From a virus: a DNA stretch of 64,000 nucleotides. The position numbers and the translations under genes were made by a program. Location: positions 35,322 to 99,321 of the IMG/VR virus record IMGVR_UViG_3300034980_000576, one strand, 5' to 3'. The notes under the pieces were generated by a model. It was not told the origin of the DNA. It searched no databases and saw only the letters and a program-made list of their open reading frames with translations. Below, in pieces: positions 41,756-64,000 of this stretch (position 1 is its first letter; every line of letters starts with the position of its first letter).

Positions 41756-42376
41756 ATGAGACATCAACTTATAATGGAAAACTGGCGCAGCTTTTTAATA
41801 GAAGCACCAGAGAAAGCCGCAATATTACAATATATAAAAGATAGTAATATACAACTTACTGAACAACAAATCGACGAAGCTATGCCAAGGTGGTTAAGAA
41901 ATATGGTTGCAACTGGCATGTTAATAACTACCGCAGCAGGAGTGCTAGCTCCTAATCCTGCCATGGCAGATGAATGGGATGATATGTTTAACCAGTCGGC
42001 ATCAGAACAACAGGCAGAGGCTCCCAGTCCCGAAGCGTCTAGCGAGACTGGTGAAAAGATGGCTGCCAAAATTTTTGATGCTATCAAGGACAAGGTATCC
42101 GATGGTTCCACTATTAACTTAAGTAGTGAAACGTTGCCAAGTGCCGATTTAGACGGAAATGCTTTCGGTAATTCTGTAATGGATGGTCTGCAAGATCTAT
42201 TAGCTAATAAAAATATCGAAGTACTTGAGAAGAGTACTGCCGGCCATCCTAGTAATGATGCTAGCGGCGGAATACATATTTCTATAATGGATCACACACA
42301 AGCCGGCGAATACACGCTACAACTCGGCGGGACAGGCGCCCTCAAAAATATTAATGTGATGTCTCAAGTAAAATGA
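41756..42376 (+). CDS. hypothetical protein with type-B leader (LIMENWRSFLIE) and internal signal-peptide-like segment
   Basis: The leader is shared with 49743, 50365 and 51426; hydrophobic MVATGMLITTAAGVLAPNPAMA. Confidence 0.65.
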   Translation: MRHQLIMENWRSFLIEAPEKAAILQYIKDSNIQLTEQQIDEAMPRWLRNMVATGMLITTAAGVLAPNPAMADEWDDMFNQSASEQQAEAPSPEASSETGEKMAAKIFDAIKDKVSDGSTINLSSETLPSADLDGNAFGNSVMDGLQDLLANKNIEVLEKSTAGHPSNDASGGIHISIMDHTQAGEYTLQLGGTGALKNINVMSQVK

Positions 42377-42399
42377 AATTCAGTAAGGAATAAACAATA

Positions 42400-43065
42400 A
42401 TGAAAATCACAAAACAACAACTTAGACAGATTATCCTAGAAGAAATGGAAAACATGGACGAAGGACTCTGGGATCAGATCAAGGGCACCTTTGCTGGTGT
42501 CGGCTCTGCTTTAACATCCCCGCTTGGATCAGTCGGACAAGGCTATCGCCGCGGCAAAGCAGCCTCGGTTTTGAGATCTGCTGCAGTTGATATCAACAAG
42601 GTAAGACAAGACTTTGTTGGCAACATCGAAGGGTTGTTTAAGTCTGTATTCTCAGACGTAGCTAAGGTTGACTCATCTATGAGACCGGTAGTGGAAAAGT
42701 GGAACGAGGCGATTGCCATGATGGACGAGGTATCCGACATACTGCAGGAGTTGAGTGTTGAGGTTAAAGCCAAGGCGTCAACAGGACCAAGAGATGACTT
42801 GAATGTGCGGGTTGCTGAAAGCGAGAAAAAAGATGAGTTAGATGATCTTATAATCAAAAACCCATCATATCTTGAAGAAGATGAGGATTTTCTGGGCGAT
42901 GTAAAGTCGACAGGCGAATGGACAGATTACACAATTACACAGCTTCAGAAGAAGAAAGACGCTTTAATGAAAAAGAAAAAGAGAACAGCCGCAGAAGTCA
43001 AAACAGTGCGCCAGTTAAACTTTGCTATCAACGCAAAGCAGGGCGACTATAAAGAAAAGAAATGA
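42400..43065 (+). CDS. hypothetical protein with type-A leader (MKITKQQLRQIILEEM)
   Basis: RBS aagga; shared leader. Confidence 0.7.
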   Translation: MKITKQQLRQIILEEMENMDEGLWDQIKGTFAGVGSALTSPLGSVGQGYRRGKAASVLRSAAVDINKVRQDFVGNIEGLFKSVFSDVAKVDSSMRPVVEKWNEAIAMMDEVSDILQELSVEVKAKASTGPRDDLNVRVAESEKKDELDDLIIKNPSYLEEDEDFLGDVKSTGEWTDYTITQLQKKKDALMKKKKRTAAEVKTVRQLNFAINAKQGDYKEKK

Positions 43066-43994
43066 GAATCACCGAAGCCAAACTTCGGCAGATCATTCGT
43101 GAAGAAGCCGAGATCCGTCTTGTAAGGCAGGTGATTACGGAAGTCGTCGGCGATATGCAGTTGGATCTCACCGAAGAACAACGCTTGATTTTGGAAGCTT
43201 CGGTTTTGGACGCTTTGAAGAATGCAGTGGGTAATAATACGAAATTGCTTCTTTTTATGGCTACTGCTGCCTTTGGTTCTCAAATTGGAAATGATCTTCA
43301 GGTTTTGGATAAAGTTGGAATAGCTCCAGCCGCGGCGCAACAAATGCAAAACGCTGAGGATTCAAGAGAGTTTGTTAGGGCACTAAAAGATAAAGATTTG
43401 CAAGATCGAGTTCAGGCAGCTATGGATAGAGGAACCGCTGAGATGGGCAAGGATTTACCAGATGCCGGCAGGAAGGAAGTGGTAGATAATTTTATAAGTA
43501 ATCATTCTAGCGATTTCAAATTATTACAAATTGGTTCAGGGCCAATAACTGACAAAATGGGCAATTTGTATTATTATGTTCCATATGGGAAAATTGTTGA
43601 TAAAGATGCAACTTATACCGATTATACAACCGGAGAAGAAGGTATCGATGGAAAACGAAAGGGATACCAACAAAGTTCTACATCTACACTAAAAAATGTT
43701 ATCAAGGGGGGCAACATAAACTTATTCGCTCATTATGGACCCGGAAAATTCGTTACTGTCGATGGACCCAATGGCCCGGGCCAATTACTAACGGCTGATT
43801 TTTCAGCCTTCATACAGGGCTATCTTGATAAGATGCAAGCAAGAAGCCCGGAAGGCCGCGCCGCCGCAGCAGATGCTGATGCGGCTATGACAGTCACACC
43901 CGACGACACTACTGAACTTAATCCAGAATTGATTAAAAAAACACAACAGCGCGTAGCTAAAAACATCAAGAATCTTCAACAAAAACGTAAATAA
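43062..43994 (+). CDS. hypothetical protein with type-A leader (MRITEAKLRQIIREEA)
   Basis: ATGA overlap with the upstream gene; leader variant. Confidence 0.7.
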   Translation: MRITEAKLRQIIREEAEIRLVRQVITEVVGDMQLDLTEEQRLILEASVLDALKNAVGNNTKLLLFMATAAFGSQIGNDLQVLDKVGIAPAAAQQMQNAEDSREFVRALKDKDLQDRVQAAMDRGTAEMGKDLPDAGRKEVVDNFISNHSSDFKLLQIGSGPITDKMGNLYYYVPYGKIVDKDATYTDYTTGEEGIDGKRKGYQQSSTSTLKNVIKGGNINLFAHYGPGKFVTVDGPNGPGQLLTADFSAFIQGYLDKMQARSPEGRAAAADADAAMTVTPDDTTELNPELIKKTQQRVAKNIKNLQQKRK

Positions 43995-43999
43995 AGTAC

Positions 44000-44028
44000 T
44001 TGACAACGGTTCCGTAGAGTGATATGAT
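44000..44028 (+). promoter_or_regulatory. sigma70-type promoter for the small ORF and Mre11-Rad50 gene
   Basis: TTGACA (44000-05), 17-bp spacer, TATGAT (44023-28) with extended -10 TG. Confidence 0.78.
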
Positions 44029-44047
44029 ATAGTATAAAGGGGCACAT

Positions 44048-44143
44048 ATGCTAGATTTTGCTGCGGATACGTTTGTGAAAGCGTTCATTATTTACACAGG
44101 TTGGTATGGGTTCAATGCCCTCTTTTGGATGATGTTAAACTAG
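44048..44143 (+). CDS. putative 31-aa hydrophobic small protein (MLDFAADTFVKAFIIYTGWYGFNALFWMMLN)
   Basis: Read manually. Preceded by a promoter and an aaagggg RBS; its stop overlaps the RBS of the next gene. Confidence 0.45.
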   Translation: MLDFAADTFVKAFIIYTGWYGFNALFWMMLN

Positions 44144-44151
44144 GAGAGCAT

Positions 44152-47310: not shown

Positions 47311-47321
47311 GAGATTGCAAA

Positions 47322-48590
47322 GTGAAAGTAACCAAGAGACAACTTAAGAAGTTAATCAGGGAAGAACTTGAAAACACCAAAGAACTGGATGAGGTATTCG
47401 GCTTGTTCGGTGATTCTAGGCTCGAAAAGCTTGTACAAAAAAATAAGGCTATGTATCAAAAACTAGCGCAAGATGGACCACTGAACAACATGTCAGTACC
47501 GGATTCTTTTCCGCTTTGGGGCTCAAGCAGAGGCGGCACGAAAGGCGCTTGGCGCAACGCCGATGTCAGGGGCGCCCCAGAGGAGCATATAGAAGCGGTG
47601 ATTGACTTCCTTGCCCGGGCAAACGTCGCCGATGCTCATGACGCCATTCCGAAGATGGGTGAAAGAAAAAGCCCCGTATCTGTGACGTCCCAGATGTATC
47701 GTGCCTATCAATATTTTTTTAATCCAGATAGAGAGTCCGGATCTTGGGAAAAAGACAAAGAAAAGCAAGCCAAAGACGCCGCGTGGAAACAAGGCGCCCC
47801 GGGCCGAGAAAAGGCAGCAGCACAAAGGCGCGCCGGCAAACAACAAGATCTTCTAAATGCATTGATGCCATGGAAGGAGCGTTTGGATTCGTATCAGAAT
47901 GGTATCATGTCACGCAAAGGAATCATTCGAGATCTCAATCGCGATGGTATTACTGATCTGGAGAAAGCCCATGGCTATTTAAAAGATGCCAATGCCGCCT
48001 TGAGAGCAGCCACACAACTTCTAAGAACACCAGAAGGCAAAAAAGCGCTCGGGGACTTTTCCTCACTGACGAGCAACCCTGAAGGTTTTGTGCAAGACCT
48101 TACGAAGATGGTACAACACTTGAAACAGCTGGGCCGCGATGAAGAATCTGTGCGTTCGAGAGACAAGCACGTTGATGATCGTGAAGTTGCCACCGACACC
48201 CATTACGGCGCCGGCGGCGCTCGCAAACGCAAGAGCGACTTTCAACGAACTTCGCGCTTTAACGAATCCCAACTTAAACAGATTATCAAAGAAGAGCTTG
48301 AGGCAGCTTTAAGCGAAAATAAAAGAAATAAAAGCAACAAATTTAAAGATACAGATTTATCAAAGATAAGCAACGACGATCTCACAAGAATGTTGGGTGA
48401 CAACAACGTAGCATTCGGAAATCTTACCGGCGCCAATATCGAGGACTTCGACCAGTGGACCGACGACGAGCATGACAGATTGAACGCTATAGACGGCACC
48501 GCCGAATTACATGCCATCAATCGCGATATTAGGGTTGCCCTAAGAGACAAGTCCGATCGTCGAGCCGGCACGAACGTATTCGGATTTTAA
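47322..48590 (+). CDS. hypothetical protein with type-A leader and a second, internal leader copy
   Basis: GTG start after aggag; MKVTKRQLKKLIREEL at the N-terminus and ESQLKQIIKEELE at 48264..48302. Confidence 0.7.
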   Translation: MKVTKRQLKKLIREELENTKELDEVFGLFGDSRLEKLVQKNKAMYQKLAQDGPLNNMSVPDSFPLWGSSRGGTKGAWRNADVRGAPEEHIEAVIDFLARANVADAHDAIPKMGERKSPVSVTSQMYRAYQYFFNPDRESGSWEKDKEKQAKDAAWKQGAPGREKAAAQRRAGKQQDLLNALMPWKERLDSYQNGIMSRKGIIRDLNRDGITDLEKAHGYLKDANAALRAATQLLRTPEGKKALGDFSSLTSNPEGFVQDLTKMVQHLKQLGRDEESVRSRDKHVDDREVATDTHYGAGGARKRKSDFQRTSRFNESQLKQIIKEELEAALSENKRNKSNKFKDTDLSKISNDDLTRMLGDNNVAFGNLTGANIEDFDQWTDDEHDRLNAIDGTAELHAINRDIRVALRDKSDRRAGTNVFGF

Positions 48591-48603
48591 CAAGGAATAA
48601 ACA

Positions 48604-49746
48604 ATGTCAGACGAAAAAGAAGATAAAAACGAATTTGATTTTCTGCCTCCCGCAGAACCACCTCCCGCGTTCGCGCAGGAAAAAGACAGCTACCACGAAT
48701 CAGTAGACGCTGAAGACTTCGGTATGGTAGAGGACTTCGGATTACAGATGGAATACTCTGATGAAGATTTACTCCCCGAGAACACCGCGCCTTCTTCGAT
48801 TAACGTTGGCTTTGTCGGGGTTGGCGGCGGAGGCAACAAAATGGCGAATGCGTTCATTGAACTTGGATTCAATAAGACGCTACTCGTAAATTCAACAGGT
48901 AAAGACATTCCAAAGAATGTAGAAGAGGATCACGTTGTCCTTATTCCCGACTCAGACGGGATTGGAAAAAACGTAGAATATGGAAAAGAGGTTTTAAGTC
49001 AAAATGGTGCGATTGTTGAAGATGCCCTGCGTATCAAACTCGGTAAAGTTGATTGGTTATTCGTCCTTGCTGGCGGCGGTGGCGGTACCGGTAGTAGTGT
49101 TACCGCTCTGCACCCTGTCTTTGAGCGTTACATGCGCTCTGTGCAGTCGAGTGGCAAGGTCGTTTATATAGTCTCATGGCCCACAGCACAAGAAAACCTT
49201 AACCCAACAATCGCTCGTAATGCGTTGACGCTGGCAAATGATGTTGCACAGCATCCGCATATCGTTCTTGATAACGAACGAGCCACTCGATTACTCCGCG
49301 GCCGAATCGGCATGCTCGGCATGTATCCAGTCGCCAACACAACTTTTGCTAAGTCACTTGCCCAAGTGTTAAAACTCTCCACCGAGGATTCACCGATCCA
49401 ATCTTTCGACAGCAAGGACTTGGAAACATGTCTGGGCAATGACGGTCGTGCCTTTTTAGGCTCAACTATGATAAAGGATCCAAATACTGCTAAGCTTGGA
49501 TCGGTGATTCTCCACAACTGCATGAATCGTTCTGCATGTCCTCCACCGAAAGGTAAGGCTGCTGCAGGATCGTTAGTGCTGGTTGTGTCAGAAGAGATGG
49601 TGGCTGACCCTAAAGTCAGTAAAAACATTGAGTCTGCGATTGCTTATGTCGGCGGTCGATGCGAGACACTTTTCTCTGGCGTTTACGTCCGAAAGAATGT
49701 GCCCGGATTGATTGCGATACTAAGCATGAATGGATTAGCAACATGA
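48604..49746 (+). CDS. tubulin/FtsZ-family GTPase (PhuZ/TubZ/CetZ-like)
   Basis: T1 loop VGVGGGGNKMA, GIGKN, tubulin signature GGGGGTGSS, VLDNE, and T7-like loop SFDSKDL; RBS aagga. Confidence 0.88.
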   Translation: MSDEKEDKNEFDFLPPAEPPPAFAQEKDSYHESVDAEDFGMVEDFGLQMEYSDEDLLPENTAPSSINVGFVGVGGGGNKMANAFIELGFNKTLLVNSTGKDIPKNVEEDHVVLIPDSDGIGKNVEYGKEVLSQNGAIVEDALRIKLGKVDWLFVLAGGGGGTGSSVTALHPVFERYMRSVQSSGKVVYIVSWPTAQENLNPTIARNALTLANDVAQHPHIVLDNERATRLLRGRIGMLGMYPVANTTFAKSLAQVLKLSTEDSPIQSFDSKDLETCLGNDGRAFLGSTMIKDPNTAKLGSVILHNCMNRSACPPPKGKAAAGSLVLVVSEEMVADPKVSKNIESAIAYVGGRCETLFSGVYVRKNVPGLIAILSMNGLAT

Positions 49747-50036
49747 AACTAATATTTGAAAATTGGCGAAAGCATTTGGTAGAATACGGATTAGATCGGG
49801 ATGAGCAAGCTAAGGCCCGTGATCATTATTATAATATTAAAAGCGCCATCGCCGATGCTCTAACAGAGCAGGGCAATGATTGGGCTCTTGATGAGTCGAA
49901 ATGGGAAGAAATTATAATTCCATCTGGCGGAAGCGAACAGGACCATGTTAGGTTTGTTCAAGAACTCCAAGCATTTATGCAAACTATGCAACTTGGCGAT
50001 CTAAAAGATTTAGGTGTCTTAATTGAGCCATACTAG
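49743..50036 (+). CDS. cassette protein, type-B leader (MKLIFENWRKHLVE)
   Basis: The ATG lies within the repeat and overlaps the tubulin TGA; the track's upstream extension overlaps tubulin and is unlikely. Confidence 0.7.
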   Translation: MKLIFENWRKHLVEYGLDRDEQAKARDHYYNIKSAIADALTEQGNDWALDESKWEEIIIPSGGSEQDHVRFVQELQAFMQTMQLGDLKDLGVLIEPY

Positions 50037-50054
50037 TATAACAGGATTAACTAC

Positions 50055-50345
50055 ATGAAGATTACAAAACAACAACTTAAACAAATTATCAAAGAAGAGC
50101 TTTCAAAGGTTATGAATGAAAGCATGCCCGGTATGGAGCCTTATGACTTGAGTGCTTTGGTGCCAAAAGGCGAAGACCCTAAAAAAAGGGCTGCAGCCAT
50201 CAAAGCTGGTCGCGACGATTTTCATAATCTCGGCAAACTCGACGATACATGGAAAAAGACCCGTTACTATAAGTATTATAAGGATGCCTTTTATAATGCG
50301 AAGGATGAACAAGATGCCGGCTTCGTAGATAGAATGGGCGAATAA
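50055..50345 (+). CDS. cassette protein, type-A leader
   Basis: MKITKQQLKQIIKEEL; flanked by repeats. Confidence 0.75.
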   Translation: MKITKQQLKQIIKEELSKVMNESMPGMEPYDLSALVPKGEDPKKRAAAIKAGRDDFHNLGKLDDTWKKTRYYKYYKDAFYNAKDEQDAGFVDRMGE

Positions 50346-50364
50346 GTATGAATGGATTAGCAAC

Positions 50365-50601
50365 ATGAAACAACTGTTTGAAAATTGGCGAAAGTGTTTA
50401 AACGAAGTCTCAATGGACGATGTGCACAAATTGTTTGTAAAGTACGATCTTCCAGAAAAAGAAGAACAACTTGTTGTCAAAGCCGCCGAACAAGCTGTCT
50501 TAAATAAAGACAAGGTGATGTTTGATAACTTGCCGGCAAACTTAAAAGCTGCAGCAAAAGAATTAATTGATATAAACATGCAACTGCGCAAGGGTTTATA
50601 A
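50365..50601 (+). CDS. cassette protein, type-B leader
   Basis: MKQLFENWRKCLNE; flanked by two identical 28-bp repeats. Confidence 0.75.
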   Translation: MKQLFENWRKCLNEVSMDDVHKLFVKYDLPEKEEQLVVKAAEQAVLNKDKVMFDNLPANLKAAAKELIDINMQLRKGL

Positions 50602-50620
50602 GTATGAATGGATTAGCAAC

Positions 50621-51118
50621 ATGAAAATCACAAAATCACAACTTAAACAGATTATCAAAGAAGAGCTTACAAATACTTTGAGCGAGATCTCGGCCGCCGA
50701 CGCCGAATCAATACTGGCACCCGCAGAGCCGCAAGACAACCTGCCGCGTGATGTCAGGAAAAAGGCTTTCGGCTCCGAAGGAGCAGAAGTGCTCGACATG
50801 CTCGACCCCGAAGCAGTGCTCAGCGCCGCCCGAAACTCAGAAGAATATAAACACACAACAGCCCGCTACTCTCGGTCCGCGGCCAACCAACTAGGATATG
50901 TAAGTCATGACCCAGTTTTACACATGGTGATAAACGGTATGTGTAAAACCATGGGGAAGGGCGACAATTGCCAACCTATTTATCATCATGGTGATCGTGA
51001 ATATGGATATCGGATAAACTTTGGATTATTCGGCCCAGTAGGTAAAAGAACCAAATTTGGAAAAATGGTAGATGATCTTTATGATCAAATATCGAACGAG
51101 TTAAAGCCCAAAGCATGA
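50621..51118 (+). CDS. cassette protein, type-A leader
   Basis: MKITKSQLKQIIKEEL; ends KA* within the next repeat. Confidence 0.75.
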   Translation: MKITKSQLKQIIKEELTNTLSEISAADAESILAPAEPQDNLPRDVRKKAFGSEGAEVLDMLDPEAVLSAARNSEEYKHTTARYSRSAANQLGYVSHDPVLHMVINGMCKTMGKGDNCQPIYHHGDREYGYRINFGLFGPVGKRTKFGKMVDDLYDQISNELKPKA

Positions 51119-51146
51119 ATGGATTAGCAACATAAAGGATAATAAA

Positions 51147-51425
51147 ATGAAGATTACAAAACAACAACTTAAACAGATTATCAAAGAAGAGCTTGAGAAT
51201 TTAATAGAAGCAGACGAAGCATGGGTTTTAAGAAAGTCTGGCGCCAGTGACGCTAGCTCCTTCCTACATCCAACCCCTGCATCGGATCAGAAAAAGGGAA
51301 ATTATAAGTGGGGAGCCAAGGAAGGCGCCCGCACTTTTAAAGGCGAAAATGCGAAGCTTCGTGCCGAGGACGAGAAAAAAAGATTAGCAGAGAAAGGCAT
51401 TACTGTTAGTATAGAGAAGAAATAG
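51147..51425 (+). CDS. cassette protein, type-A leader
   Basis: MKITKQQLKQIIKEEL; RBS aagga. Confidence 0.75.
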   Translation: MKITKQQLKQIIKEELENLIEADEAWVLRKSGASDASSFLHPTPASDQKKGNYKWGAKEGARTFKGENAKLRAEDEKKRLAEKGITVSIEKK

Positions 51426-51899
51426 ATGAAACAACTATTTGAAAATTGGAACAGATACTTGAATGAAGGAGGCGCCGTCGGGCACCTTTTTGGAGTAGAT
51501 GATAATCCAGATTTATCCCAAGATCGAGATGGATTTAAAACCGCTAAAAAACCCATTCCATTAGAATTTAGATATGCCGAAGCCGATGAGACAATCGAAA
51601 CAAAGGAAGGCCCCGTTGGCGCTAATGCTGGAGATGCTATTATGACCGGCACAGAAGGCGAGCAATGGCCAATCCCCGCAGAGAAGTTCGCGCAAACATA
51701 TAACGATCTTGGAGATGGCACAGCATCGAAGAAAGACATTCCAGTTTTTGCCAAGCAAATGATGGTTCCCTTCAAGGTCAAAGTATCGTGGTCAAATGAT
51801 TTACTCCAAGGAGAGCCGGGAGACTATTTAGTACAATACGGCCCGGGCGATTATGGGGTGGTTGGTAGAGAAATCTTTGCCAAAACTTACAAAGCATGA
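51426..51899 (+). CDS. cassette protein, type-B leader fused to PGDYG-family domain
   Basis: MKQLFENWNRYLNE, then IETKEGPV...GDAIMTGTEGEQWPI...F..TY, repeated as GDYLVQYGPGDYGVVGREIFAKTY. Confidence 0.75.
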   Translation: MKQLFENWNRYLNEGGAVGHLFGVDDNPDLSQDRDGFKTAKKPIPLEFRYAEADETIETKEGPVGANAGDAIMTGTEGEQWPIPAEKFAQTYNDLGDGTASKKDIPVFAKQMMVPFKVKVSWSNDLLQGEPGDYLVQYGPGDYGVVGREIFAKTYKA

Positions 51900-51929
51900 A
51901 TGGATTAGCAATATAAAAGGAATAATATA

Positions 51930-52508
51930 ATGGCTATAAGAAAAAACAAGAAATTTATTGATCCTCGTTACTTTATGGACGAGAAGACCGAGACCACTAA
52001 CGAAGCGTGGGATCCACATGGGAACTGGAAATCCCGATTCCCAGACGGACGCTCTAAAGGTAGTGACGCCGAGCCTGAAACGGATGAAGAGCGTGCACAC
52101 CGCCGGGCAAAAGAAGCCCGCGAAGATGAACGACGCAGAGAGGCTGGTCTCCCGCCAAGAAAAAGCAAGTACTTTGAAGAGAACGAAAACGAATCACCAT
52201 ACGAGCCAGATCCTCGTCTAACCCGCGGCCTGGAAAAATCTATGGCTGCCGGAGAAGCAGATAGGGCGCCCGAAGAGATCATGCGCGATGTCGCCGACGC
52301 CATAGCAGACAAGTTTAATGTCGAGGCATCCGTTGAGATCGCTAGCGATGGAAAGCCTGCTATTTTGGTAACACATCAAGATGGAGAAACTACAGCATAT
52401 GACGACACCGAAGAAATGTACAAAGATTTAGCAGATGAAATAGGTCGCGATATACATGGCGACTCCGATCGAGATGAAGATAATTGGCTGTACGGTGCGG
52501 AGTATTAA
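51930..52508 (+). CDS. cassette protein, highly charged hypothetical
   Basis: RBS aagga; N-terminus MAIRKNKKFIDPRYFMDE. Confidence 0.65.
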   Translation: MAIRKNKKFIDPRYFMDEKTETTNEAWDPHGNWKSRFPDGRSKGSDAEPETDEERAHRRAKEAREDERRREAGLPPRKSKYFEENENESPYEPDPRLTRGLEKSMAAGEADRAPEEIMRDVADAIADKFNVEASVEIASDGKPAILVTHQDGETTAYDDTEEMYKDLADEIGRDIHGDSDRDEDNWLYGAEY

Positions 52509-52513
52509 GAAAA

Positions 52514-52801
52514 ATGAAAATCACTAAATCACAACTTAAACAGATTATTGTAGAAGAACTTAGAGACTACTACGGTGGAGAATCGCACCCTCAATCAGAG
52601 CGTGATGCTGCGCAGCCTCGCCGTCCCGAAGCCGACAGTTTTTCGGGTCATTTGTCCCTGTCCAATTCCATCCGCGATGCTATCATCGGTCATCTGGAGA
52701 ATGAGAAGTTTTTCGAGATGGGCGCGATTCCGCAATCCGTTATCAGAGTTATTGAAAATTCCTCCGTACGTATCTCCGACGCAGTGGAAGGAATGGATTA
52801 G
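52514..52801 (+). CDS. cassette protein, type-A leader
   Basis: MKITKSQLKQIIVEEL from ATG 52514; its TAG stop is inside the repeat. Confidence 0.7.
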   Translation: MKITKSQLKQIIVEELRDYYGGESHPQSERDAAQPRRPEADSFSGHLSLSNSIRDAIIGHLENEKFFEMGAIPQSVIRVIENSSVRISDAVEGMD

Positions 52802-52805
52802 CAAC

Positions 52806-52898
52806 ATGAAGATCACCAAGTCCCAACTTAAACAAATTATCAAAGAAGACACCGAGGATTCCACAAAGAACTCAAAACGAGCAAAAGGATTAAGTTAA
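52806..52898 (+). CDS. 30-aa leader-only ORF (possible cassette remnant)
   Basis: MKITKSQLKQIIKEDTEDSTKNSKRAKGLS*; the ATG is in the repeat and the stop overlaps the next ATG. Confidence 0.5.
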   Translation: MKITKSQLKQIIKEDTEDSTKNSKRAKGLS

Positions 52899-53192: not shown

Positions 53193-53630
53193 ATGAAAAT
53201 CACTAAGTCTCAACTCAAGCAGATCATTAAAGAAGAAATCTTTTCTATGAATGAGTACGGTTCAGTCTCTAATTTTGGAGGCATGGCCACAAGTTTGGCG
53301 TCCGTTAGGGAACCAGTGAACCACATGCAGGATGGGCCTGACTCTATTGTGCAGTCAAAAGCGACAGGATTTTTTATGGACTTAGGCTTGAACGCCGAGA
53401 TTACGGCCGTTATGGTTAATAATATTGCTATTCCGGATTTAATTTCTGTCATGGAGAAAATACCCAAAATCTGGACGGCAGATGAAGAGCCGTTGGAAGA
53501 AGTGTCCTCGGAAAAACAACGCCGCTGGGCATGCGCGCAAAAAGATAAGCCGGCCAGCGACCGCGCTGATAGCCTCTCAGCAAAAGAAGCAGAAGAGATG
53601 TGCACATCAAAAATAGAAGAAGACGATTGA
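53193..53630 (+). CDS. hypothetical protein with type-A leader
   Basis: MKITKSQLKQIIKEEI from ATG 53193; C-terminal SEKQRRWACAQ. Confidence 0.7.
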   Translation: MKITKSQLKQIIKEEIFSMNEYGSVSNFGGMATSLASVREPVNHMQDGPDSIVQSKATGFFMDLGLNAEITAVMVNNIAIPDLISVMEKIPKIWTADEEPLEEVSSEKQRRWACAQKDKPASDRADSLSAKEAEEMCTSKIEEDD

Positions 53631-54660: not shown

Positions 54661-55042
54661 AAAAGATTTAAATTATATTGCAGCCGTTGAGAAAGCAATC
54701 ACCGACAAATATGGAGAAGAAACCGTACAGAACCCAAGAACTGAGTGGGGCCCCGATCGAGAGAAAGAACACCTCTTGCAAATGAAAGAGTTATATGAAA
54801 AAACACTCAGGAATGAAGCAGCTACAGAGAAAGTAGACATAAATGGTATAAAGGTTTCAAAAAAACTACTTAATAGGGAGCCTTTGAAGAAATGTCCCAC
54901 TTGCGGTATATTGCCGCGAAAATCCCGGGATGATATTAGTCTTCTAAAATTTCAGTGTTGTTATACATGCTATATTCAATACGTGGAAGGAAGAGAGGAT
55001 AGGTGGGAAAAAGGATGGAGACCCAATGAAACTAAATTCTAG
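54653..55042 (+). CDS. hypothetical protein with C-terminal CxxC..CxxC zinc finger
   Basis: CPTC ... CYTC. Confidence 0.6.
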   Translation: MTKKDLNYIAAVEKAITDKYGEETVQNPRTEWGPDREKEHLLQMKELYEKTLRNEAATEKVDINGIKVSKKLLNREPLKKCPTCGILPRKSRDDISLLKFQCCYTCYIQYVEGREDRWEKGWRPNETKF

Positions 55043-55373
55043 AACCCTTAAAGACATGATAAAAGAAGTTCTTTCTGAGGAAAACCAAGTCGATCCCACC
55101 AAATTAAAATCAACTGCGATGTCCACGTCGCAGAGGAAACAAACCAGTGTTGATAGAATCACCACAGATGATTCCGAGTTTACTTCACAAGAAAAGGGAA
55201 TCCTAGATCAAATAGAAGGCTTTCTGTCAGACCTGGCAGCCCAACCCGGAGTTGATATGACAAAGTATCGCAGCCAACTCGAACGAGTCATGAAACTTTT
55301 ACAACAATCTGTTTCTTCGACAAGCTCAGCTGCAGAGCAACCCCAACCACCAACAATAAGAGGACAACAATAA
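55026..55373 (+). CDS. hypothetical protein with divergent type-A leader
   Basis: MKLNSRTLKDMIKEVLSE; RBS ggag. Confidence 0.6.
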   Translation: MKLNSRTLKDMIKEVLSEENQVDPTKLKSTAMSTSQRKQTSVDRITTDDSEFTSQEKGILDQIEGFLSDLAAQPGVDMTKYRSQLERVMKLLQQSVSSTSSAAEQPQPPTIRGQQ

Positions 55374-55922: not shown

Positions 55923-56672
55923 ATGAAAATCGCCAAGTCCCAACTGCAACAAATTATTATAGAAGAATATCTCCGCGAAGAAGGAATTCAGTTAGAGGCT
56001 TTAGATCCAGATAAATTTGAAGAGTTTAAGGCGTGGGTTAATAAGACCGGCCCAAAACCCGACTGGCTCGATGACTATGGTAAAAGCAAAAAGCACGTAC
56101 CGAATGCTCCCTCCGTACCGGACAACGCTCTCAGTGCCCTCGAAACAATGCCCATGGATATCCCATCAGATGACGCCACAGAGCGCGATGTTGGTAGCTT
56201 CCAAGATCGATCCGGCCCATCTGACGGCCCTTTAGCGGATCCGAGAGACATGTCAGATGAAGATCTTGTTGATGCTATTTCGAATATGATCCAAGGTCGA
56301 GATCCTGAGCGCGTAGCTGAGCTTTTTCAGGTGGTGTTTTCTAATCTCCCTGACGTGGAAATGTCTTCTCCGGAAGATGAAATACCCGGCACGGAATATG
56401 TTCCCGGAGCAATGGGCCGACCAACAGCTGGCTTCAAGCTTGAAGAACTAAAGGGTTTGATCAGAGAAGTATTGGCAGAAGGCCACTACCACGACATGGG
56501 CGCCGAAGACGAAATGTACGACGCATTAGATCCTCACGGATTTAACAAAATGTCTGATGCGCAGATAGTTGATCAAGCTTGGAAAGATGGAATTGAAGAA
56601 ATGATTGCGCTTGATGGCGAAGGCACCATCGCCAATAGAGAAGAGGTTATAGCAGCACTACAAGATGTATGA
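55923..56672 (+). CDS. acidic hypothetical protein with type-A leader
   Basis: MKIAKSQLQQIIIEEYL from ATG 55923 after aagga; internal LEELKGLIREVLAE. Confidence 0.65.
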   Translation: MKIAKSQLQQIIIEEYLREEGIQLEALDPDKFEEFKAWVNKTGPKPDWLDDYGKSKKHVPNAPSVPDNALSALETMPMDIPSDDATERDVGSFQDRSGPSDGPLADPRDMSDEDLVDAISNMIQGRDPERVAELFQVVFSNLPDVEMSSPEDEIPGTEYVPGAMGRPTAGFKLEELKGLIREVLAEGHYHDMGAEDEMYDALDPHGFNKMSDAQIVDQAWKDGIEEMIALDGEGTIANREEVIAALQDV

Positions 56673-58252
56673 GTTTTCAACTAACGAAAAAAGAGCAAGT
56701 AAAAGAAATATTGAAATGTGGCAAGGATCCATCTTACTTTCTTAAAAATTTCGCCCGGATATCTCATCCGATGCACGGGCAGATCCTTTTTGATACATAT
56801 GATTTTCAAGATTTGCTCCTCACTGATTTTAACGATTATCGATTTAACGTTATTTTGAAAGCAAGACAACTTGGGATATCAACCATTACCGCGGGCTATA
56901 TCGCTTGGATGATGTTATTCCACAGGGATAAGTCTATTTTGGTTATGGCAACAAAGTTTGCAACTGCTGGTAACTTGGTTAAAAAAGTCAAGAGCATTAT
57001 GAAAAATCTACCGCATTGGATACGTATTTCTTCCATATCTGTCGACAACCGAACTTCATTTGAATTATCGAATGGCTCTTCAATTAAAGCGGCATCTACT
57101 TCTGGTGATGCGGGTCGTTCTGAAGCCCTGTCTCTCTTGGTCCTCGACGAAGCTGCCCACATTGAGGGTCTTGAAGGATTGTGGACCGGTCTATATCCCA
57201 CGCTCTCAACTGGTGGCCGCTGCATCGCGCTCTCAACCCCGAATGGCGTGGGGAACTGGTTTCATAGAGCTTGTATGGATGCGGAAGCCGGCACTAATAA
57301 TTTCAATTTAACTACGCTCGCTTGGGATGTTCACCCCGATCGCGACGAGATCTGGTATCAGAAAGAAACCAAGAATATGTCTAAGAGACAGATTGCACAA
57401 GAGCTAGAATGTAATTTTAACACTTCTGGAGAAACTGTAGTAGATCCAGAATGTATGGAGTGGCTGCTTTCTAATGTGACCGATCCTAAACATAAAACCG
57501 GCTTCGATCGCAACTTTTGGATTTGGGAAGAATTCGATCCCACCTGCAACTATTTGATGGTTGCAGATGTTGCCCGCGGCGATGGAGCGGACTTCTCAGC
57601 GTTTCATATAATAAAGCTTGAAACACTACAAGTGGTAGGGGAATACCAAGGAAAGCCCTCCCTGGATATGTACGCGGGGATGCTTAATCAAATAGGAAGA
57701 GAGTACGGCAATTGTATGCTTGTGGTCGAAAATAATAATGTCGGTTACTCTGTGCTAAATAAATTGATAGAACATGGATACCCAAATGTATATCATTCTA
57801 TAAAGTCTAGTCACGAATATATAGAGCAATATCAAGCCGAAGGCATATCTTCGGCGGTCCCCGGATTTACAACTTCTATGAAAACTAGACCACTTATAAT
57901 CGCGAAAATGGAAGAGTTTATAAGAAATAAACTAATTACCATATATTCTTCTCGCACAATCAGCGAGATGAAGACTTTTATTTGGAGGAATGGTAAACCC
58001 CAGGCGATGAAAGGATACCATGATGATCTTATCATGGCTCTCGCAATTGCATGCTGGGTTAGAGACACCGCACTTCAAAGTAATGCCCGAGACTTAAATT
58101 ATCAAAGAGCTTTTGCAAATGCGATTATAACTTCAAAAACCACAATGAATACGAAAATAAGTGGTCAACATGGCTACAAAAAAGATAATATTTTTGATAA
58201 AATGAGTGAAGCAGAGAAAATGTACCAACAATATAAATGGATTATAAAGTGA
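56669..58252 (+). CDS. terL: terminase large subunit (T4 gp17-like)
   Basis: Walker A KARQLGIS, Walker B LVLDEAAH, coupling motif STPNG, nuclease motifs ADVARGDGADFSA and HDDLIMA. Confidence 0.95.
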   Translation: MSFQLTKKEQVKEILKCGKDPSYFLKNFARISHPMHGQILFDTYDFQDLLLTDFNDYRFNVILKARQLGISTITAGYIAWMMLFHRDKSILVMATKFATAGNLVKKVKSIMKNLPHWIRISSISVDNRTSFELSNGSSIKAASTSGDAGRSEALSLLVLDEAAHIEGLEGLWTGLYPTLSTGGRCIALSTPNGVGNWFHRACMDAEAGTNNFNLTTLAWDVHPDRDEIWYQKETKNMSKRQIAQELECNFNTSGETVVDPECMEWLLSNVTDPKHKTGFDRNFWIWEEFDPTCNYLMVADVARGDGADFSAFHIIKLETLQVVGEYQGKPSLDMYAGMLNQIGREYGNCMLVVENNNVGYSVLNKLIEHGYPNVYHSIKSSHEYIEQYQAEGISSAVPGFTTSMKTRPLIIAKMEEFIRNKLITIYSSRTISEMKTFIWRNGKPQAMKGYHDDLIMALAIACWVRDTALQSNARDLNYQRAFANAIITSKTTMNTKISGQHGYKKDNIFDKMSEAEKMYQQYKWIIK

Positions 58253-58260
58253 GTAAATAA

Positions 58261-60255
58261 ATGGCCGGTTCGATAAGAGATAACCCGAAAAATGTACGAT
58301 CAGCATTATTCAAATCTTTAACTAGATTGTTTTCGGGCCCTATTATAAATTATAGATCCCAGTCTGGTCGCCGCATCCGGCGCCAACATTTGGATAAATT
58401 TTCATCAAGATTCGCTTCAGCCTCTGGTCAACAGTTCAAAAAGCAACATTATAGCCCTCTGGATACTTTGTCAACAAAAGCTATTCAAAATCAGCAAAGA
58501 ACCGAAAGGTACATTGATTTTGACCAGATGGAGTATATGCCAGAGATTGCCTCTACGATGGATATCTATGCAGACGAAATGACAACCTATTCGGCTCTGC
58601 GTCCAATGCTCAACATCAACTGCCCCAACGAAGAAATTAAAGCAGTTCTAGCAATACTTTATAGCAATATTTTGAATATCGAATATAATCTTTTCGGTTG
58701 GGCCCGCACCATGTGCAAGTATGGAGACTTTTTTCTATATCTGGATATTGATGACAAGTATGGAGTTCAGTCTGTTATCTCTCTTCCGGTCAATGAGGTG
58801 GAAAGATTAGAAGGTATGGACTCAACCAATCCGAATTACATCCAATACCAATGGAACTCCGCCGGAATGACATTTGAAAATTGGCAGGTATCCCATTTCC
58901 GTGTATTGGGTAATGATAAATATCAACCATATGGTACTTCAATTTTGGAACCTGCTCGGCGCATATGGCGACAACTTACTCTTATGGAAGATGCGATGAT
59001 GGCCTATCGGGTTATTCGTTCTTCTGAGCGCCGCGTCTTCAAAATTGATGTTGGTGGGATCCCCCCCAATGAAGTTGAGCAATTTATGCAAAAGACCGTA
59101 ACGAGCCTCAAGCGACACAGCGTTGTTGATCCGGAAACAGGTAAAGTAGATCTTAGATATAACCCGATGTCGATCGAAGAAGATTATTTTATTCCCGTGC
59201 GCCAGGGTTCTGTCACTGACATTCAAAATCTTGCCGGCGGGACCAATACCACAGAGATAGATGATATCAAGTATCTCCGCGACAAGCTCTTCTCTGCGTT
59301 AAAAATTCCCCAGTCTTATCTCGCGATGGGTGACGGCGCCAACGAAGATAAAACCACTTTAGCCCAAAAGGACATAAGGTTTGCGAGAACGATTCAGCGA
59401 CTCCAGAGAGTGGTGATATCAGAACTTGAAAAGATTGGAATTATCCATCTTTATACGCTGGGCTTCCGCGGCGATGATCTTCTTTCTTTCAAGCTCTCTC
59501 TAAATAATCCTTCAAAGATCGCAGAGTTGCAAGAAATAGAGCACTGGAAACAAAAGTTTGATATTGCTGGCTCAGCTACAGAGGGGTATTTCTCTCGGCG
59601 CTGGGTTGCTGATAACATATTTGGTATGTCCCATGAAGAATTCATGCGGAACCAGAGAGAAATGTATTATGATCGGAAGCACGACGCGTCACTTCAACAA
59701 GTCGCAGAAGCTGCAGCAGCCGGCGAAACGGCCGGCCTAGGCGGTGATATGGGCTTAGGCGATGCCGGCGGTGAACTTGACCTAGGCGGCGAAGAAGGGT
59801 TAGAGCTGGGCGATGCCCCGGATGAGATGCCAGCCGGCGAGGCCGGCGGTACCGAAGAGCCCGCTGGCGATGAATCGCCGTTGCTAGCAGTTCCGCCGGG
59901 ATCCCGTAACGCTCCTCGCTTGACGCCTGGAGCCAAAGGAAAAGTATATACACCGGTCAAGAGTGACAAACGCTCTGCTGGCGCCAGGACACGCTCGTAT
60001 TCCTCAAAATATTCCAAGGAAAAGGCTAGCCCAACTACAAGAAATATTGTACCCGGTTATGCTGATTTAAAAACTTTAACTAAAATGGATGGTCTATCTA
60101 CGGGGATTTATGAGACGGACGACTCTATATACTCCTTAGAAGAACAAGATCAAGAAAAACAAATATTTGAGGTCAATAAATCTGTCAGAAGTTTAATAGA
60201 TGTTTTAGAAAAAAAGGAAAGTGTACCCACGGAGCAAAATGATGAAGCACAATAA
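58261..60255 (+). CDS. portal protein (T4 gp20-like) with long acidic C-terminal extension
   Basis: PEIASTMDIYADE, YGTSILEPARRIWRQLTLMEDAMMAYRV.RS.ERRVFKIDVG, EDYFIP.R, IDDIKYLRDKLFSALKIP, DIRFARTIQRLQ; follows the terminase. Confidence 0.95.
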   Translation: MAGSIRDNPKNVRSALFKSLTRLFSGPIINYRSQSGRRIRRQHLDKFSSRFASASGQQFKKQHYSPLDTLSTKAIQNQQRTERYIDFDQMEYMPEIASTMDIYADEMTTYSALRPMLNINCPNEEIKAVLAILYSNILNIEYNLFGWARTMCKYGDFFLYLDIDDKYGVQSVISLPVNEVERLEGMDSTNPNYIQYQWNSAGMTFENWQVSHFRVLGNDKYQPYGTSILEPARRIWRQLTLMEDAMMAYRVIRSSERRVFKIDVGGIPPNEVEQFMQKTVTSLKRHSVVDPETGKVDLRYNPMSIEEDYFIPVRQGSVTDIQNLAGGTNTTEIDDIKYLRDKLFSALKIPQSYLAMGDGANEDKTTLAQKDIRFARTIQRLQRVVISELEKIGIIHLYTLGFRGDDLLSFKLSLNNPSKIAELQEIEHWKQKFDIAGSATEGYFSRRWVADNIFGMSHEEFMRNQREMYYDRKHDASLQQVAEAAAAGETAGLGGDMGLGDAGGELDLGGEEGLELGDAPDEMPAGEAGGTEEPAGDESPLLAVPPGSRNAPRLTPGAKGKVYTPVKSDKRSAGARTRSYSSKYSKEKASPTTRNIVPGYADLKTLTKMDGLSTGIYETDDSIYSLEEQDQEKQIFEVNKSVRSLIDVLEKKESVPTEQNDEAQ

Positions 60256-61580: not shown

Positions 61581-61590
61581 GATTGCTATA

Positions 61591-62130
61591 ATGACATCTA
61601 AAATGAAAATTATATTAGAAAGATGGGATAGCTATCTTATCTTTGAGGAGGATACACTGTCACAACTCAAAGACGATCCTGCTGCAGTGGAAGAGCTAGC
61701 AGACGATGTTGCGCGCATTAAGGATAGAAAGAGGCTGCAAGCCGTTTTAAATGCATTAGCAGCCGATCCTCAAGTAATGCAGGTGGTTAGCGCACTCAAG
61801 GAGCTTGCACAAGAGGTTGATGACACCCCTGCCGATGTAGAGGAGAACCTATCCGACGACTTCCTCGGACTCGCGACTCAAGGATATGTAAGTGCCCGGA
61901 ACTTGTTGGACACTGAAGCCGCTCGAAAAATAATGAAGGTGGCACCACCCCTGCTGGCTTTGGGTCTTATCGCCTTCAAGCTAACGAGTGGCGGTGGCAT
62001 GGACCCTGATGACGGTGGTATGCTGTCAACAATTTTAAAAACCACCGGCAAGACTGACTTCGAGTCAGTCCTCGGTTTCATGGGTGCCGGCGCTGAGGGC
62101 GCCATAACGGAGAGACGATGGAGCTACTAA
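61591..62130 (+). CDS. hypothetical protein with type-B-like leader and hydrophobic segment
   Basis: MKIILERWDSYLIFE; VAPPLLALGLIAF. Confidence 0.6.
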   Translation: MTSKMKIILERWDSYLIFEEDTLSQLKDDPAAVEELADDVARIKDRKRLQAVLNALAADPQVMQVVSALKELAQEVDDTPADVEENLSDDFLGLATQGYVSARNLLDTEAARKIMKVAPPLLALGLIAFKLTSGGGMDPDDGGMLSTILKTTGKTDFESVLGFMGAGAEGAITERRWSY

Positions 62131-62426
62131 CATTTATATTATGCGCGTATGGGTTAACACAAGTCATCGTCTATGGTAGAATATTCTATAAAGTTAGACC
62201 AGTAAAAGGAAAACTGGGAGAGTTATTTAAGTGCCCTATGTGTGTAGGCTTCCACGTAGGCTGGTTTTTAATGCTACTTTCGCCATTTACAGAACTATTT
62301 AACTTTGATGTCTCGGTGGCAAATTTCTTTTTATTAGGCTGGTTATCATCGGGTACTTCGTACATTTTTAATATGGTCTTTGGAGACGAGGGAATAAAAC
62401 ATGAACACAAATATCTGGACAAATAA
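62118..62426 (+). CDS. small membrane protein, DUF1360-like (CPMC)
   Basis: Three hydrophobic segments with ELFKCPMCVGFHVGW. Confidence 0.55.
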   Translation: MELLTFILCAYGLTQVIVYGRIFYKVRPVKGKLGELFKCPMCVGFHVGWFLMLLSPFTELFNFDVSVANFFLLGWLSSGTSYIFNMVFGDEGIKHEHKYLDK

Positions 62427-62469
62427 GTGGATGTTACAGCCAGTTAGGCACTGCTGTAAAGGATCTTAG
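62401..62469 (+). CDS. possible 22-aa peptide MNTNIWTNKWMLQPVRHCCKGS
   Basis: ATG after gaggga; fills the gap exactly up to the protease start. Confidence 0.3.
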   Translation: MNTNIWTNKWMLQPVRHCCKGS

Positions 62470-62471
62470 CT

Positions 62472-63080
62472 ATGGGTCAAAAATTATTGAGAGAATATTA
62501 CGAACTTTGCGATGGCGGAGTTTGTCAGGATTTGCTTACAGAAGAAGAGAAGAGATTCGTTTCTGGAGGTGGTATGATTTTGAGCGGCATTATTCAGCGC
62601 TCTGATACCGTTAATGGTAACGGTCGAGTATATCCCCACGGAGTTCTCGTAAGAGAGATGAAAAACTACGAGAAGCTCGTCAAAGAACGGAGAGCCCTAG
62701 GTGAACTAGATCACCCGGAAGACTCTGTTATCAATCTTCGTAATGCCTCACACATGATGACTGAGGTATGGTGGGACGGTAAGAGTGTCATGGGTAAGGC
62801 CAAAGTACTCGACACGCCCTCCGGCAAGGTGCTTCAGGAGCTTGTGAGAGCCGGTGTAGCCATCGGCATATCCTCGAGGGGTATGGGCTCTGTCTCAGAG
62901 TCACAAGGCAACACAGTGGTGGAGGACGACTTTCAACTAATCTGTTTTGATTTCGTCTCTGAACCATCGACGCCCGGCGCTTTCATGATGAAAGAGGCCA
63001 AAGATTATGAGAACAAAGTATTCACCAAAGCTGATAAAATTAACAGGCTTTTAAACGAGATATTATTCGATGAAGAATGA
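62472..63080 (+). CDS. prohead core protease (T4 gp21-like)
   Basis: GIIQ....NGNGRVYP, ALGELDHP (catalytic His), GISSRGMGS (catalytic Ser), DFVSEPSTPGA. Confidence 0.93.
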   Translation: MGQKLLREYYELCDGGVCQDLLTEEEKRFVSGGGMILSGIIQRSDTVNGNGRVYPHGVLVREMKNYEKLVKERRALGELDHPEDSVINLRNASHMMTEVWWDGKSVMGKAKVLDTPSGKVLQELVRAGVAIGISSRGMGSVSESQGNTVVEDDFQLICFDFVSEPSTPGAFMMKEAKDYENKVFTKADKINRLLNEILFDEE

Positions 63081-63861
63081 AGAATTCAAAATCATAAACG
63101 AACGCTGGGATAGATATTTAAAAGAAGAACCTGAGCCGCTTGACGAGAGTGTATATGACATTCTTGATTTTATTAATAATCTGATTAGCTCAGGCAAGAT
63201 AGCAGAACTTAAAGCTATGTGGGATCTGGTGTCTATGATTGGTGGTTTCGTTTTGCCAAAGGTCGCGGCGGCCATGAGCATTCCTCTCGCCGGCGTAGTT
63301 CTGTTGACCCCCTTCTTTATTTCTATGCAGAAGAAGGGAAATGACAAGGCTATGATCAAAGATCTCGACGGAGAATTCGAAAAACTACGCCAGGCACACC
63401 CCGACAAAGAAGAAAATATCAACAAAGCTCATACAACTGTTAGGCACTCATATGCATATATTATGAAAAAATCCCTGTTTGCAGTTAATGGAAAGAAGCT
63501 TGAAAAAGAATTATCGCAAGAAGTAGATCCCACATCGGAAGGAATGGCGGAGAAAATTCAAGAACTTATATTAAAGAAACTAAACTTAGAGTTCTTCAGC
63601 GAGAACGCTGTCGGCGGCATCAACGCGTTTATTGCAGGCAATTTTGCAGATCCCAAATTGAGAAAAGCTTTGATTGAGTTTATTATAGGGTATGCCGGCA
63701 CCAACATAGGGAAACACTTACAAGATAAGACAAACTATGACCCTGCGACCGGTGCCTTGAGATTTAAGGCGCCACCCCCCACTAAGGGCCCAGAAGGAAG
63801 AGAAGAGACCCCCGGCGGCCTTACTCTCCCATCTGGGGATGATGTGAAGAAGTTTGGATAG
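63070..63861 (+). CDS. hypothetical protein with type-B-like leader and TM segment
   Basis: FKIINERWDRYLKE; hydrophobic VAAAMSIPLAGVVLLTPFFISM. Confidence 0.6.
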   Translation: MKNEEFKIINERWDRYLKEEPEPLDESVYDILDFINNLISSGKIAELKAMWDLVSMIGGFVLPKVAAAMSIPLAGVVLLTPFFISMQKKGNDKAMIKDLDGEFEKLRQAHPDKEENINKAHTTVRHSYAYIMKKSLFAVNGKKLEKELSQEVDPTSEGMAEKIQELILKKLNLEFFSENAVGGINAFIAGNFADPKLRKALIEFIIGYAGTNIGKHLQDKTNYDPATGALRFKAPPPTKGPEGREETPGGLTLPSGDDVKKFG

Positions 63862-63864
63862 AAA

Positions 63865-64000
63865 ATGAATAAAAAAGAATTAAAGAAATTACTGAAGCCG
63901 CTCGTAAAAGAGTGTATACAGGAAGCCCTCATAGAAGAGGGCCTCCTTTCTAATGTTGTTTCTGAGGTCGTAAAGGGCCTTGGAACACAGACTATTGTAG
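63865..64000 (+). CDS. hypothetical protein, 3'-truncated by window edge
   Basis: MNKKELKKLLKPLVKECIQEALIEEGLLS..., open to the window end; N-terminus loosely resembles the type-A leader. Confidence 0.6.
   Translation, partial: MNKKELKKLLKPLVKECIQEALIEEGLLSNVVSEVVKGLGTQTIV

Follow-up and report, generated by a model that had tools for sequence, protein, structure and literature searches.

On the viral contig IMGVR_UViG_3300034980_000576 many genes begin with one of a few nearly identical N-terminal peptides and then continue into proteins that have nothing further in common, which raises the question of what such shared beginnings are for. The contig is a single piece of 99,321 bp with both ends open, and its last 64 kb, a stretch of 64,000 nucleotides, is the window analysed here; positions refer to the window unless stated to be those of the contig. 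By analogy with bacteriophage T4, we read these peptides (leaders A, B and C) as capsid-targeting tags of cargo proteins, which would be clipped by the prohead protease of the phage, and give this reading a probability of about 0.55. Every leader ends in a head-protease cut motif, so the system is most likely an enlarged version of the load-then-clip signal of T4.

Three shared leaders on unrelated payloads

A hidden Markov model (HMM) of leader A, MKITKxQLKQIIKEEL, was built from the ten N-termini claimed for it in the initial annotation of the window and run on six-frame segments of the whole contig. It returned exactly the ten claimed starts, at positions 42400, 43062, 47322, 50055, 50621, 51147, 52514, 52806, 53193 and 55923 (E 5e-8 to 1e-12), as well as one further copy inside an open reading frame (ORF), at 48264, and no other match below E = 1. 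Two looser candidates, the ORFs at 55026..55373 and 63865, had been counted with this type; the former has no match to the model and the latter no significant one, and both were set aside. The HMM of leader B, MKxLxENWxxYLxE, likewise recovered all six of the starts proposed for it, at 41756, 49743, 50365, 51426, 61591 and 63070 (E 4e-7 to 3e-11), the true start of the gene at 61591 probably being the ATG at 61603 (MKIILERW...). The contig carries two more leader-B genes before the window begins, at its positions 1528 and 2397. In addition, there is a third type, leader C (MA[IR]RKN[KT]K[FR]IDPRYF[ML]xEKTE, often continuing into IVKEEL), which heads the ORF at 51930 and, in relatives, another 28 ORFs with differing payloads, making 29 among the sequences covered. 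The initial picture of two leaders on about 17 proteins is therefore correct as to A and B themselves, while the number of types is three and copies also lie outside the window.

In order to describe the spread of leader A, IMG/VR was searched with a degenerate DNA pattern, which matched at least 118 contigs; 118 of the matched loci contain 328 leader-A and 38 leader-B copies. Homologues of the non-leader genes of our contig are present in 102 of the 118 loci and most of the others match further parts of G001, a syntenic relative of 146 kb; therefore, the loci belong to one phage family. A pattern for leader B matched at least 119 stretches of IMG/VR with 177 leader-B copies, and 92 of 112 loci come from the same family. 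When a set of 5.8 billion proteins was queried with residues 1–40, at least 516 proteins with a start resembling leader A were retrieved, which are of marine origin (Tara, GOS, POV), and none of the 516 listed carries a Pfam family or an informative name. Searches with tblastn of 50,697 GenBank phage records, seeded with a whole leader-A protein or with leaders of 20–22 residues and run with the low-complexity filter on, gave nothing useful.

Conservation of the leaders is sharply bounded. Residues 1–16 of leader A (M K I T K x Q L K Q I I K E E [LIV]) are near-invariant in 309 copies and conservation collapses beyond them, while residues 1–14 of leader B (M K L [LI] x E N W [RN] x [YF] L x E) are near-fixed in 175 copies, and not beyond E14. 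The leader-A copies comprise 274 distinct 60-mers, in which no position is restricted to a subset of the synonymous codons and the third-position identity is 0.60. Because synonymous codons vary freely while the amino acids stay fixed, these alignments indicate that selection on leader A acts at the level of the peptide. The leaders are charged amphipathic helices without a hydrophobic run and lack the hydrophobic core of about 10–20 residues behind a basic N-terminus that marks Sec, Tat or lipoprotein signal peptides.

What follows the leaders differs from gene to gene, as had been proposed. The payloads of the leader genes of our contig fall into separate BLAST clusters without shared similarity, and searches of all these leader proteins against Pfam and PHROGs returned only PGDYG (gene at 51426) and a weak match to phrog_7338. 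Across the family, 358 payloads form 243 BLAST clusters, 200 of which are singletons. Among 138 payload representatives about six have a Pfam family, each a different one (YkuD, PGDYG, FliG_C, RNase_T, Zeta_toxin and NTP_transf_2), and more than 90% of the payloads are without a recognisable family. Many are short, charged and of low complexity. A comparison with other ORFs for unusual charge or richness in membrane segments revealed nothing beyond a slight acidity, and 4–10% of the payloads have a membrane-spanning-like segment.

The same payload may, moreover, stand behind different leaders. That of our leader-A gene at 52514 (...IIVEEL|RDYYGGESHPQSERD...) matches one behind leader C in locus L045 (...EIVKEEL|RDYYDGESHSQSERD...), and the payload of our leader-C gene at 51930 is found behind leader B in loci L046 and L009. 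In locus L014 a free-standing gene carries, behind leader C, a payload that matches the part of the gene at 47322 beyond its internal leader A; therefore, the 422-residue ORF at 47322 is a fusion of two cassettes. The second leader of this ORF, at 48264, lacks a methionine (RFNESQLKQIIKEEL). If the tags are protease sites, the product would be a two-cargo polyprotein. A further apparent case, in which payload cluster 9 seemed to mix leaders A and B on one payload, was rejected as a single-linkage artefact caused by a two-module protein.

AlphaFold2 (AF2) models point in the same direction. In the model of the protein at 53193 the leader helix (residues 5–21) is followed by a low-confidence linker (residues 23–46) and a small helical domain, and in that of the leader-B protein at contig position 2397 the tag has a pLDDT below 50 and is followed by a confident alpha/beta fold; as modelled, the leader would lie outside the payload fold. 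Taken together, the unrelated payloads, the few independent Pfam domains, the occurrence of payloads behind different leaders and the peptide-level selection bear out the modular 'address tag plus payload' design suggested initially, and this architecture is solid.

Leader ends and the head protease

Both leaders had been described as ending in hydrophobic-x-Glu, and this holds for [LI]-x-E at residues 12–14 of A and B. Leaders A and C end in I-I/V-K-E-E (I-V/I-K-E-E in C) and leader B in [YF]-L-[NKT]-E, with I12 present in 298 of 309 and E14 in 304 of 309 leader-A copies, and L12 in 143 of 175 and E14 in 157 of 175 leader-B copies. The propeptides of T4 (NC_000866) share this form, as in gp24 (MAKINELLRE), gp22 (MLKEQLIAE) and Alt (MELITELFDE). 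When the gp23-like capsid protein of the family was aligned to T4 gp23, the T4 maturation site FLTE|AE came to lie opposite LLRE|SS, and LL[RK]E occupies this position in all seven family capsid proteins compared. The capsid motif and the end of leader A follow one and the same hydrophobic-hydrophobic-basic-Glu pattern.

A gp21-like protease had been assigned to the gene at 62472, and its product is indeed a Peptidase_S77 protein (E 1.5e-32), which has orthologues in relatives (22 found) and LLRE in its own N-terminus. S77 proteases accompany the leaders in four of five large relatives and in five of ten more distant leader-B contigs, including the sole one rated complete (184 kb); those without S77 are fragments. 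The initial annotation had proposed to look for co-occurrence of leaders and gp21-like protease; taken with the leader ends and the capsid motif, the sequences provide good circumstantial evidence for a link between the two.

In T4, N-terminal propeptides of 10–20 residues act as capsid-targeting sequences (CTS) and are removed by gp21 (PMC5694885). The internal proteins of T-even phages have been described as diverse and sharing only the CTS (PMC3012670), and the concept itself is therefore not new. The T4 CTS, carried by IPI, IPII, IPIII, Alt and the polymorphic T-even loci, and the leaders are alike in being a short N-terminal peptide that is the sole common part of diverse proteins, in their (L/I)-x-Glu end and in the presence of genes for a gp21-family (S77) protease and a gp20-type portal; in both systems the gene set varies between related phages. 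However, the leaders are unrelated to the CTS peptide MKTYQEFIAE and longer (14–21 residues), a visual comparison with the T4 N-termini revealing a loose likeness only (MK, aromatic and acidic residues, hydrophobic-x-Glu). The family further has three swappable tag types instead of one and about 19 tagged genes on half a genome, its payload families numbering in the hundreds where T4 has three or four, and its cassettes form arrays with a conserved 17-nt element. In T4, packaging and cleavage are experimentally established; for the present family they would follow by analogy.

In the phiKZ-like giant phages (SPN3US, phiKZ, 201phi2-1) many inner-head proteins are cut at x-x-Glu by a protease homologous to gp21, and SPN3US gp53 and gp54 have identical N-termini on diverged paralogues, which were read as CTS-like (PMC5694885). 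The propeptides of these phages differ from the leaders in being mostly longer than 100 residues, in their A/S/G-x-Glu sites and in belonging to paralogue families rather than to hundreds of unrelated payloads. Set beside the CTS and internal proteins of T4, the present system stands out by having three tags that are swapped between payloads, by its scale and by the organisation of its genes in cassettes.

Under the capsid-targeting reading, an amphipathic N-terminal helix of 14–16 residues (A, B or C) would dock a newly made protein on the scaffolding core of the prohead, and the S77 prohead protease would then cut after Glu, at IIKE|E in A and C and at [YF]L[NK]E| in B. The mature payload would stay in the head and enter the host together with the DNA. 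Address and payload are separable, so that new payloads could be recruited by recombination, both at the leader DNA and at the 17-nt element between cassettes, and the outcome would be a large, fast-turning cargo repertoire at few genomic hot spots. Docking, cleavage, packaging, ejection and payload function are what we infer by analogy; that payloads might serve as anti-defence or host-takeover effectors is pure inference.

Cassette junctions, gene neighbourhoods and competing explanations

The 17-nt element, ATGAATGGATTAGCAAC, starts at positions 49726, 50348, 50604, 51115, 51896 and 52789, giving six copies in the window (none expected by chance), all in the cassette array at 49726..52805. 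Each copy lies 0–17 nt upstream of the ATG of a leader-A, -B or -C gene, and the same holds without exception for 79 copies in 44 loci of relatives. In the tubulin gene the 17-mer makes up the 3' end; at its other sites it forms a mini-ORF of six codons (MNGLAT-stop), the TGA of which overlaps the next ATG. Its sequence suggests a role in translational coupling, as a recombination junction, or both. Furthermore, several leader copies within the contig have an identical 30-nt stretch, CAACTTAAACAGATTATCAAAGAAGAGCTT. Together, the 17-mer and these identical stretches would offer a route for gain and exchange of cassettes by homologous recombination.

A comparable arrangement is reportedly that of the PeSL cassettes of T4-type phages, attributed to Arbiol, Comeau and Krisch (2010), in which short conserved intergenic sequences flank small variable ORFs; PeSL elements reportedly promote the shuffling of modules by recombination in plastic regions. 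The 17-mer differs in its origin from the tubulin gene and in encoding a six-codon mini-ORF, and neither a promoter nor a stem-loop was identified in it.

Synteny with the 146-kb relative and the 118 loci confirms the initial suggestion that leader genes are insertions between core genes. Counted across the loci of relatives, 71 leader genes lie between tubulin and the next conserved block, 32 between primase and Mre11-Rad50, 23 just before the terminase (interval from c55373 to the large terminase gene), 21 just before the protease, 20 between Mre11-Rad50 and tubulin, and eight after the protease. The terminase, portal and protease genes also have leader genes as recurrent immediate neighbours, and in the complete 184-kb genome leader-A genes directly follow the protease gene and precede the terminase gene. 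That the protease itself carries leader A was considered and rejected, as the 21 matches just upstream of it are separate inserted genes. A shared promoter was sought in the 70 nt upstream of 34 genes, which are tightly packed, and none was seen. The only clear promoter is a sigma-70-like one (TTGACT, 17 nt, TATAAT) at about 40750–40808, directly 5' of the DnaG-type primase gene.

Several observations weigh against capsid targeting. Most leader genes lie among genes of replication and recombination (primase, Mre11-Rad50, tubulin) and not in the head module, and a late-promoter motif was not found ahead of them. Hydrophobic-x-Glu is a low-information motif in a helix rich in Glu and Lys, the leaders have no significant similarity to the T4 CTS, three leaders would need three docking sites or one tolerant site, and every functional step is drawn from the analogy with T4. 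Leader B is, in addition, stable on enzyme-like families that could equally well act in the cytoplasm. The leader-B protein at contig 2397-3092 (L001:2397-3092) has an invariant DxDxT motif, and among structures it matches best, though weakly (E 5e-4, TM ~0.35), two HAD phosphatase effectors of Legionella, Ceg4 and Lem4; this HAD-like family keeps the tag down to 30% identity. The same leader heads a DnaQ-like exonuclease (FFDTETTG), an NT5C-like nucleotidase and DUF192-like proteins. The initial annotation had named leaders on clearly non-virion enzymes as an observation that would refute packaging. Leader B does head HAD-like, DnaQ-like and PGDYG proteins, which we count as a caution; T4 Alt is a known packaged enzyme and provides a precedent for enzymes in heads.

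Because the leader-B enzyme families fit a cytoplasmic role equally well, we retain as a sizeable, if rather unlikely, alternative that the tags dock to some other shared partner in the infected cell and are not removed, the tagged proteins being cytoplasmic. A phage chaperone, the phage tubulin, a complex of replication or nucleotide metabolism, or a modifying enzyme could be such a partner. The occurrence of leader B on HAD-like, DnaQ-like exonuclease, NT5C-like and PGDYG proteins is what one would expect in this case, as is the position of the largest cassette array directly after the tubulin gene, among replication genes. However, no candidate partner gene was identified, and docking to such a partner would explain neither the common hydrophobic-x-Glu end, nor the match of leader A to the predicted LL[RK]E maturation site of the capsid protein, nor the recurrence of leader genes by the protease, portal and terminase genes. 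A more specific form, in which the leader is the client tag of a radical SAM enzyme as in systems of ribosomally synthesised and post-translationally modified peptides, was rejected for the phage family: PF04055 was not found in the five family contigs G000, G001, G002, G004 and G005 (54–79% complete), and all 14 control genomes match it.

It is less probable still that the helix is a retained structural part, for coiled-coil oligomerisation or DNA binding, of one very old paralogue family with diverged C-termini. The predicted leader helix does have an amphipathic, heptad-like pattern, and short, charged payloads of low complexity are frequent, but common descent is hard to reconcile with unrelated Pfam folds among the payloads and with one payload occurring behind A, B or C. 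Conservation drops sharply at residue 16, unlike in gradual divergence, and in the models a low-confidence linker appears to part the helix from the payload, placing it outside the fold. A further alternative, in which the peptide has no function and the leader is conserved as DNA or RNA, serving as a recombination handle or a translation-initiation region, seems very improbable. Several of our leader copies have the identical 30-nt stretch, leader DNA is A-rich, and the 17-nt element and ATGA stop-start overlaps precede many leader genes; nevertheless, across the family all synonymous codons are used per position with the amino acids fixed. The DNA identity of some copies fits recent exchange on top of, and not in place of, a function of the peptide.

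Returning to capsid targeting as the preferred reading, a bolder and more doubtful extension of it is that the abundant marine T4-type family (~180 kb) possesses an integron-like cassette system for capsid-delivered proteins, with interchangeable tags, a payload library, poly-cargo fusions and the 17-nt junction. The three address peptides would possibly have different docking sites or copy numbers. The library may comprise several hundred payload families, among them an L,D-transpeptidase, an exonuclease, a HAD phosphatase, a zeta-toxin-like kinase and a nucleotidyltransferase, and fused poly-cargo proteins would be separated at their internal tags by the head protease. The 17-nt junction with its six-codon coupling mini-ORF may let cassettes insert or exchange at fixed hot spots. 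If this were so, the phage head would be a vehicle that can be programmed for delivery, and the population as a whole would hold a library of first-strike effectors.

Even without such an extension, if the tags are capsid-targeting signals, one motif would flag the proteins that abundant marine phages inject with their DNA, and hundreds of 'hypothetical proteins' would become candidates for anti-defence or takeover factors acting before phage gene expression. The internal-protein system of T4 would then be no oddity of a coliphage but a general, greatly expandable trait of phages with gp21-type proteases, comprising several address codes side by side as well as a cassette mechanism, and the tags could be used for loading foreign proteins into the heads of phages other than coliphages.

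The phage family and the genes of the window

The contig is rated 54% complete and syntenic IMG/VR relatives of 105–146 kb are rated 58–79% complete, from which a family genome of about 180 kb is estimated. Judged by its genes, the contig is therefore ~54% of the ~180-kb genome of an uncultured marine T4-type myovirus. Its size and the Mre11-Rad50 gene led us to consider a magrovirus or another archaeal virus; this was rejected because the primase is of the DnaG type, a VanY domain is present, and portal and protease are of the T4 type. Comparison of the portal protein places the contig nearest, among cultured phages, to Flavobacterium phage vB_FspM_immuto, which has 160 kb and shows 40% identity, and to Microcystis phage Mel-JY01.

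Phage immuto (MW353176) has about eleven genes with three shared, diverged N-terminal tags, the starts of which lie at positions 1803, 25470, 102250, 102836, 103762, 111631, 113144, 117587, 118588, 123311 and 125197 of its record. Some are A-like (MKKSELVKLIKEEL, MKKSQLREIIRKEL, MKKSQLRQIIKEAL and MKKSQIVKAVQEVLEE), a second tag (MENxFDLKKFLVENKL) occurs in five copies, including genes adjoining the terminase and protease genes, and a third (MKKQILSEQF.RMQ.LAGIITES) in two. One tagged immuto gene, at 117587, is annotated as 'cob(I)alamin adenosyltransferase', probably a mis-annotation. In the literature we found nothing relevant on the proteomics of immuto or Mel-JY01, or on CTS in marine metagenomic phages; immuto, being cultured, is a relative in which the idea can be tested.

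All long genes of the contig lie on the + strand, as do all features of the window given below. In the head region the large terminase (56669..58252; PF03354, PF03237) is followed by the T4 gp20-type portal protein (58261..60255; PF07230, E 5e-78) and by the prohead protease of the T4 gp21 family (62472..63080; PF03420, N-terminus MGQKLLREYY). The genes for the gp23-like capsid protein and the scaffold fall past the contig end; in G001 both come after the protease, the scaffold there being a candidate (G001 78252) assigned by position only. The gene directly preceding the contig end (63865..63999), which is cut by it, is a conserved post-protease gene with a loosely A-like N-terminus (MNKKELKKLLKP...ALIEE); its orthologue in G001, at 70992, starts with MKKSELKKVIKP and resembles the A-like tags of immuto.

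Ahead of the Mre11-Rad50 gene are two leader-A genes. That at 42400..43065 (221 aa, HMM E 1e-10) has neither a Pfam nor a PHROG family. The other, at 43062..43994 (310 aa, E 8e-9), has a variant leader (MRITEAKLRQIIREE) and is kept after the primase in relatives, the G001 orthologue, at 54691, starting with MLITETRLKEIIREE. The two-cassette gene at 47322..48590 has a GTG start and its internal leader A spans 48264-48311. Within and next to the array after tubulin lie leader-A genes at 50055..50345 (96 aa, E 3e-10), 50621..51118 (165 aa, E 1e-11, with the 17-mer directly upstream), 51147..51425 (92 aa, E 6e-11) and 52514..52801 (95 aa, the payload swapped with leader C), a 30-aa stub at 52806..52898 (E 1e-11, seen in the ORF listing) that represents a remnant cassette, and a gene for 145 aa with two payload modules at 53193..53630, which belongs to the commonest payload family. 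The acidic 249-aa protein encoded at 55923..56672 is located directly 5' of the large terminase, a position kept in relatives.

The leader-B genes begin with one at 41756..42376 (206 aa, E 4e-7). The gene at 49743..50036 (97 aa, E 2e-10) has an ATG that overlaps the tubulin stop codon, and it is followed by those at 50365..50601 (78 aa, E 3e-11) and 51426..51899 (157 aa, E 1e-10), the latter with the PGDYG payload (PF14083, E 9e-19, residues 62-156). The gene at 61591..62130 (179 aa, E 7e-8), between the conserved gene at 61047 and that at 62118, has no counterpart at this position in G001. The gene at 63070..63861 (263 aa, one hydrophobic segment) separates the protease gene from the conserved post-protease gene; compared with G001, both this gene and the one at 61591 are insertions. 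The single leader-C gene, at 51930..52508, encodes 192 aa and starts with MAIRKNKKFIDPRYFMDEKTE.

Other genes on the contig and in its relatives include that for the tubulin/FtsZ GTPase (48604), recognised by Pfam, as was the fused Mre11-Rad50 gene at 44101. In the latter the Mre11 nuclease and the Rad50 ATPase are joined in one protein of 1069 residues (44101-47310), and the fusion is kept in relatives. The Pfam search also revealed an FKBP as well as a VanY-domain protein on the contig. In G001 a very basic ORF of 80 residues, two genes past the protease (71388-71630, locus L128), looks like ribosomal protein S21. Near the extra leader-B genes at the contig start, DUF6267 makes up the first 385 residues (E 3e-96) of a 730-residue protein (L001:6039-8228), and an adjoining protein of 315 residues (L001:4745-5689) contains a HELVHH motif.

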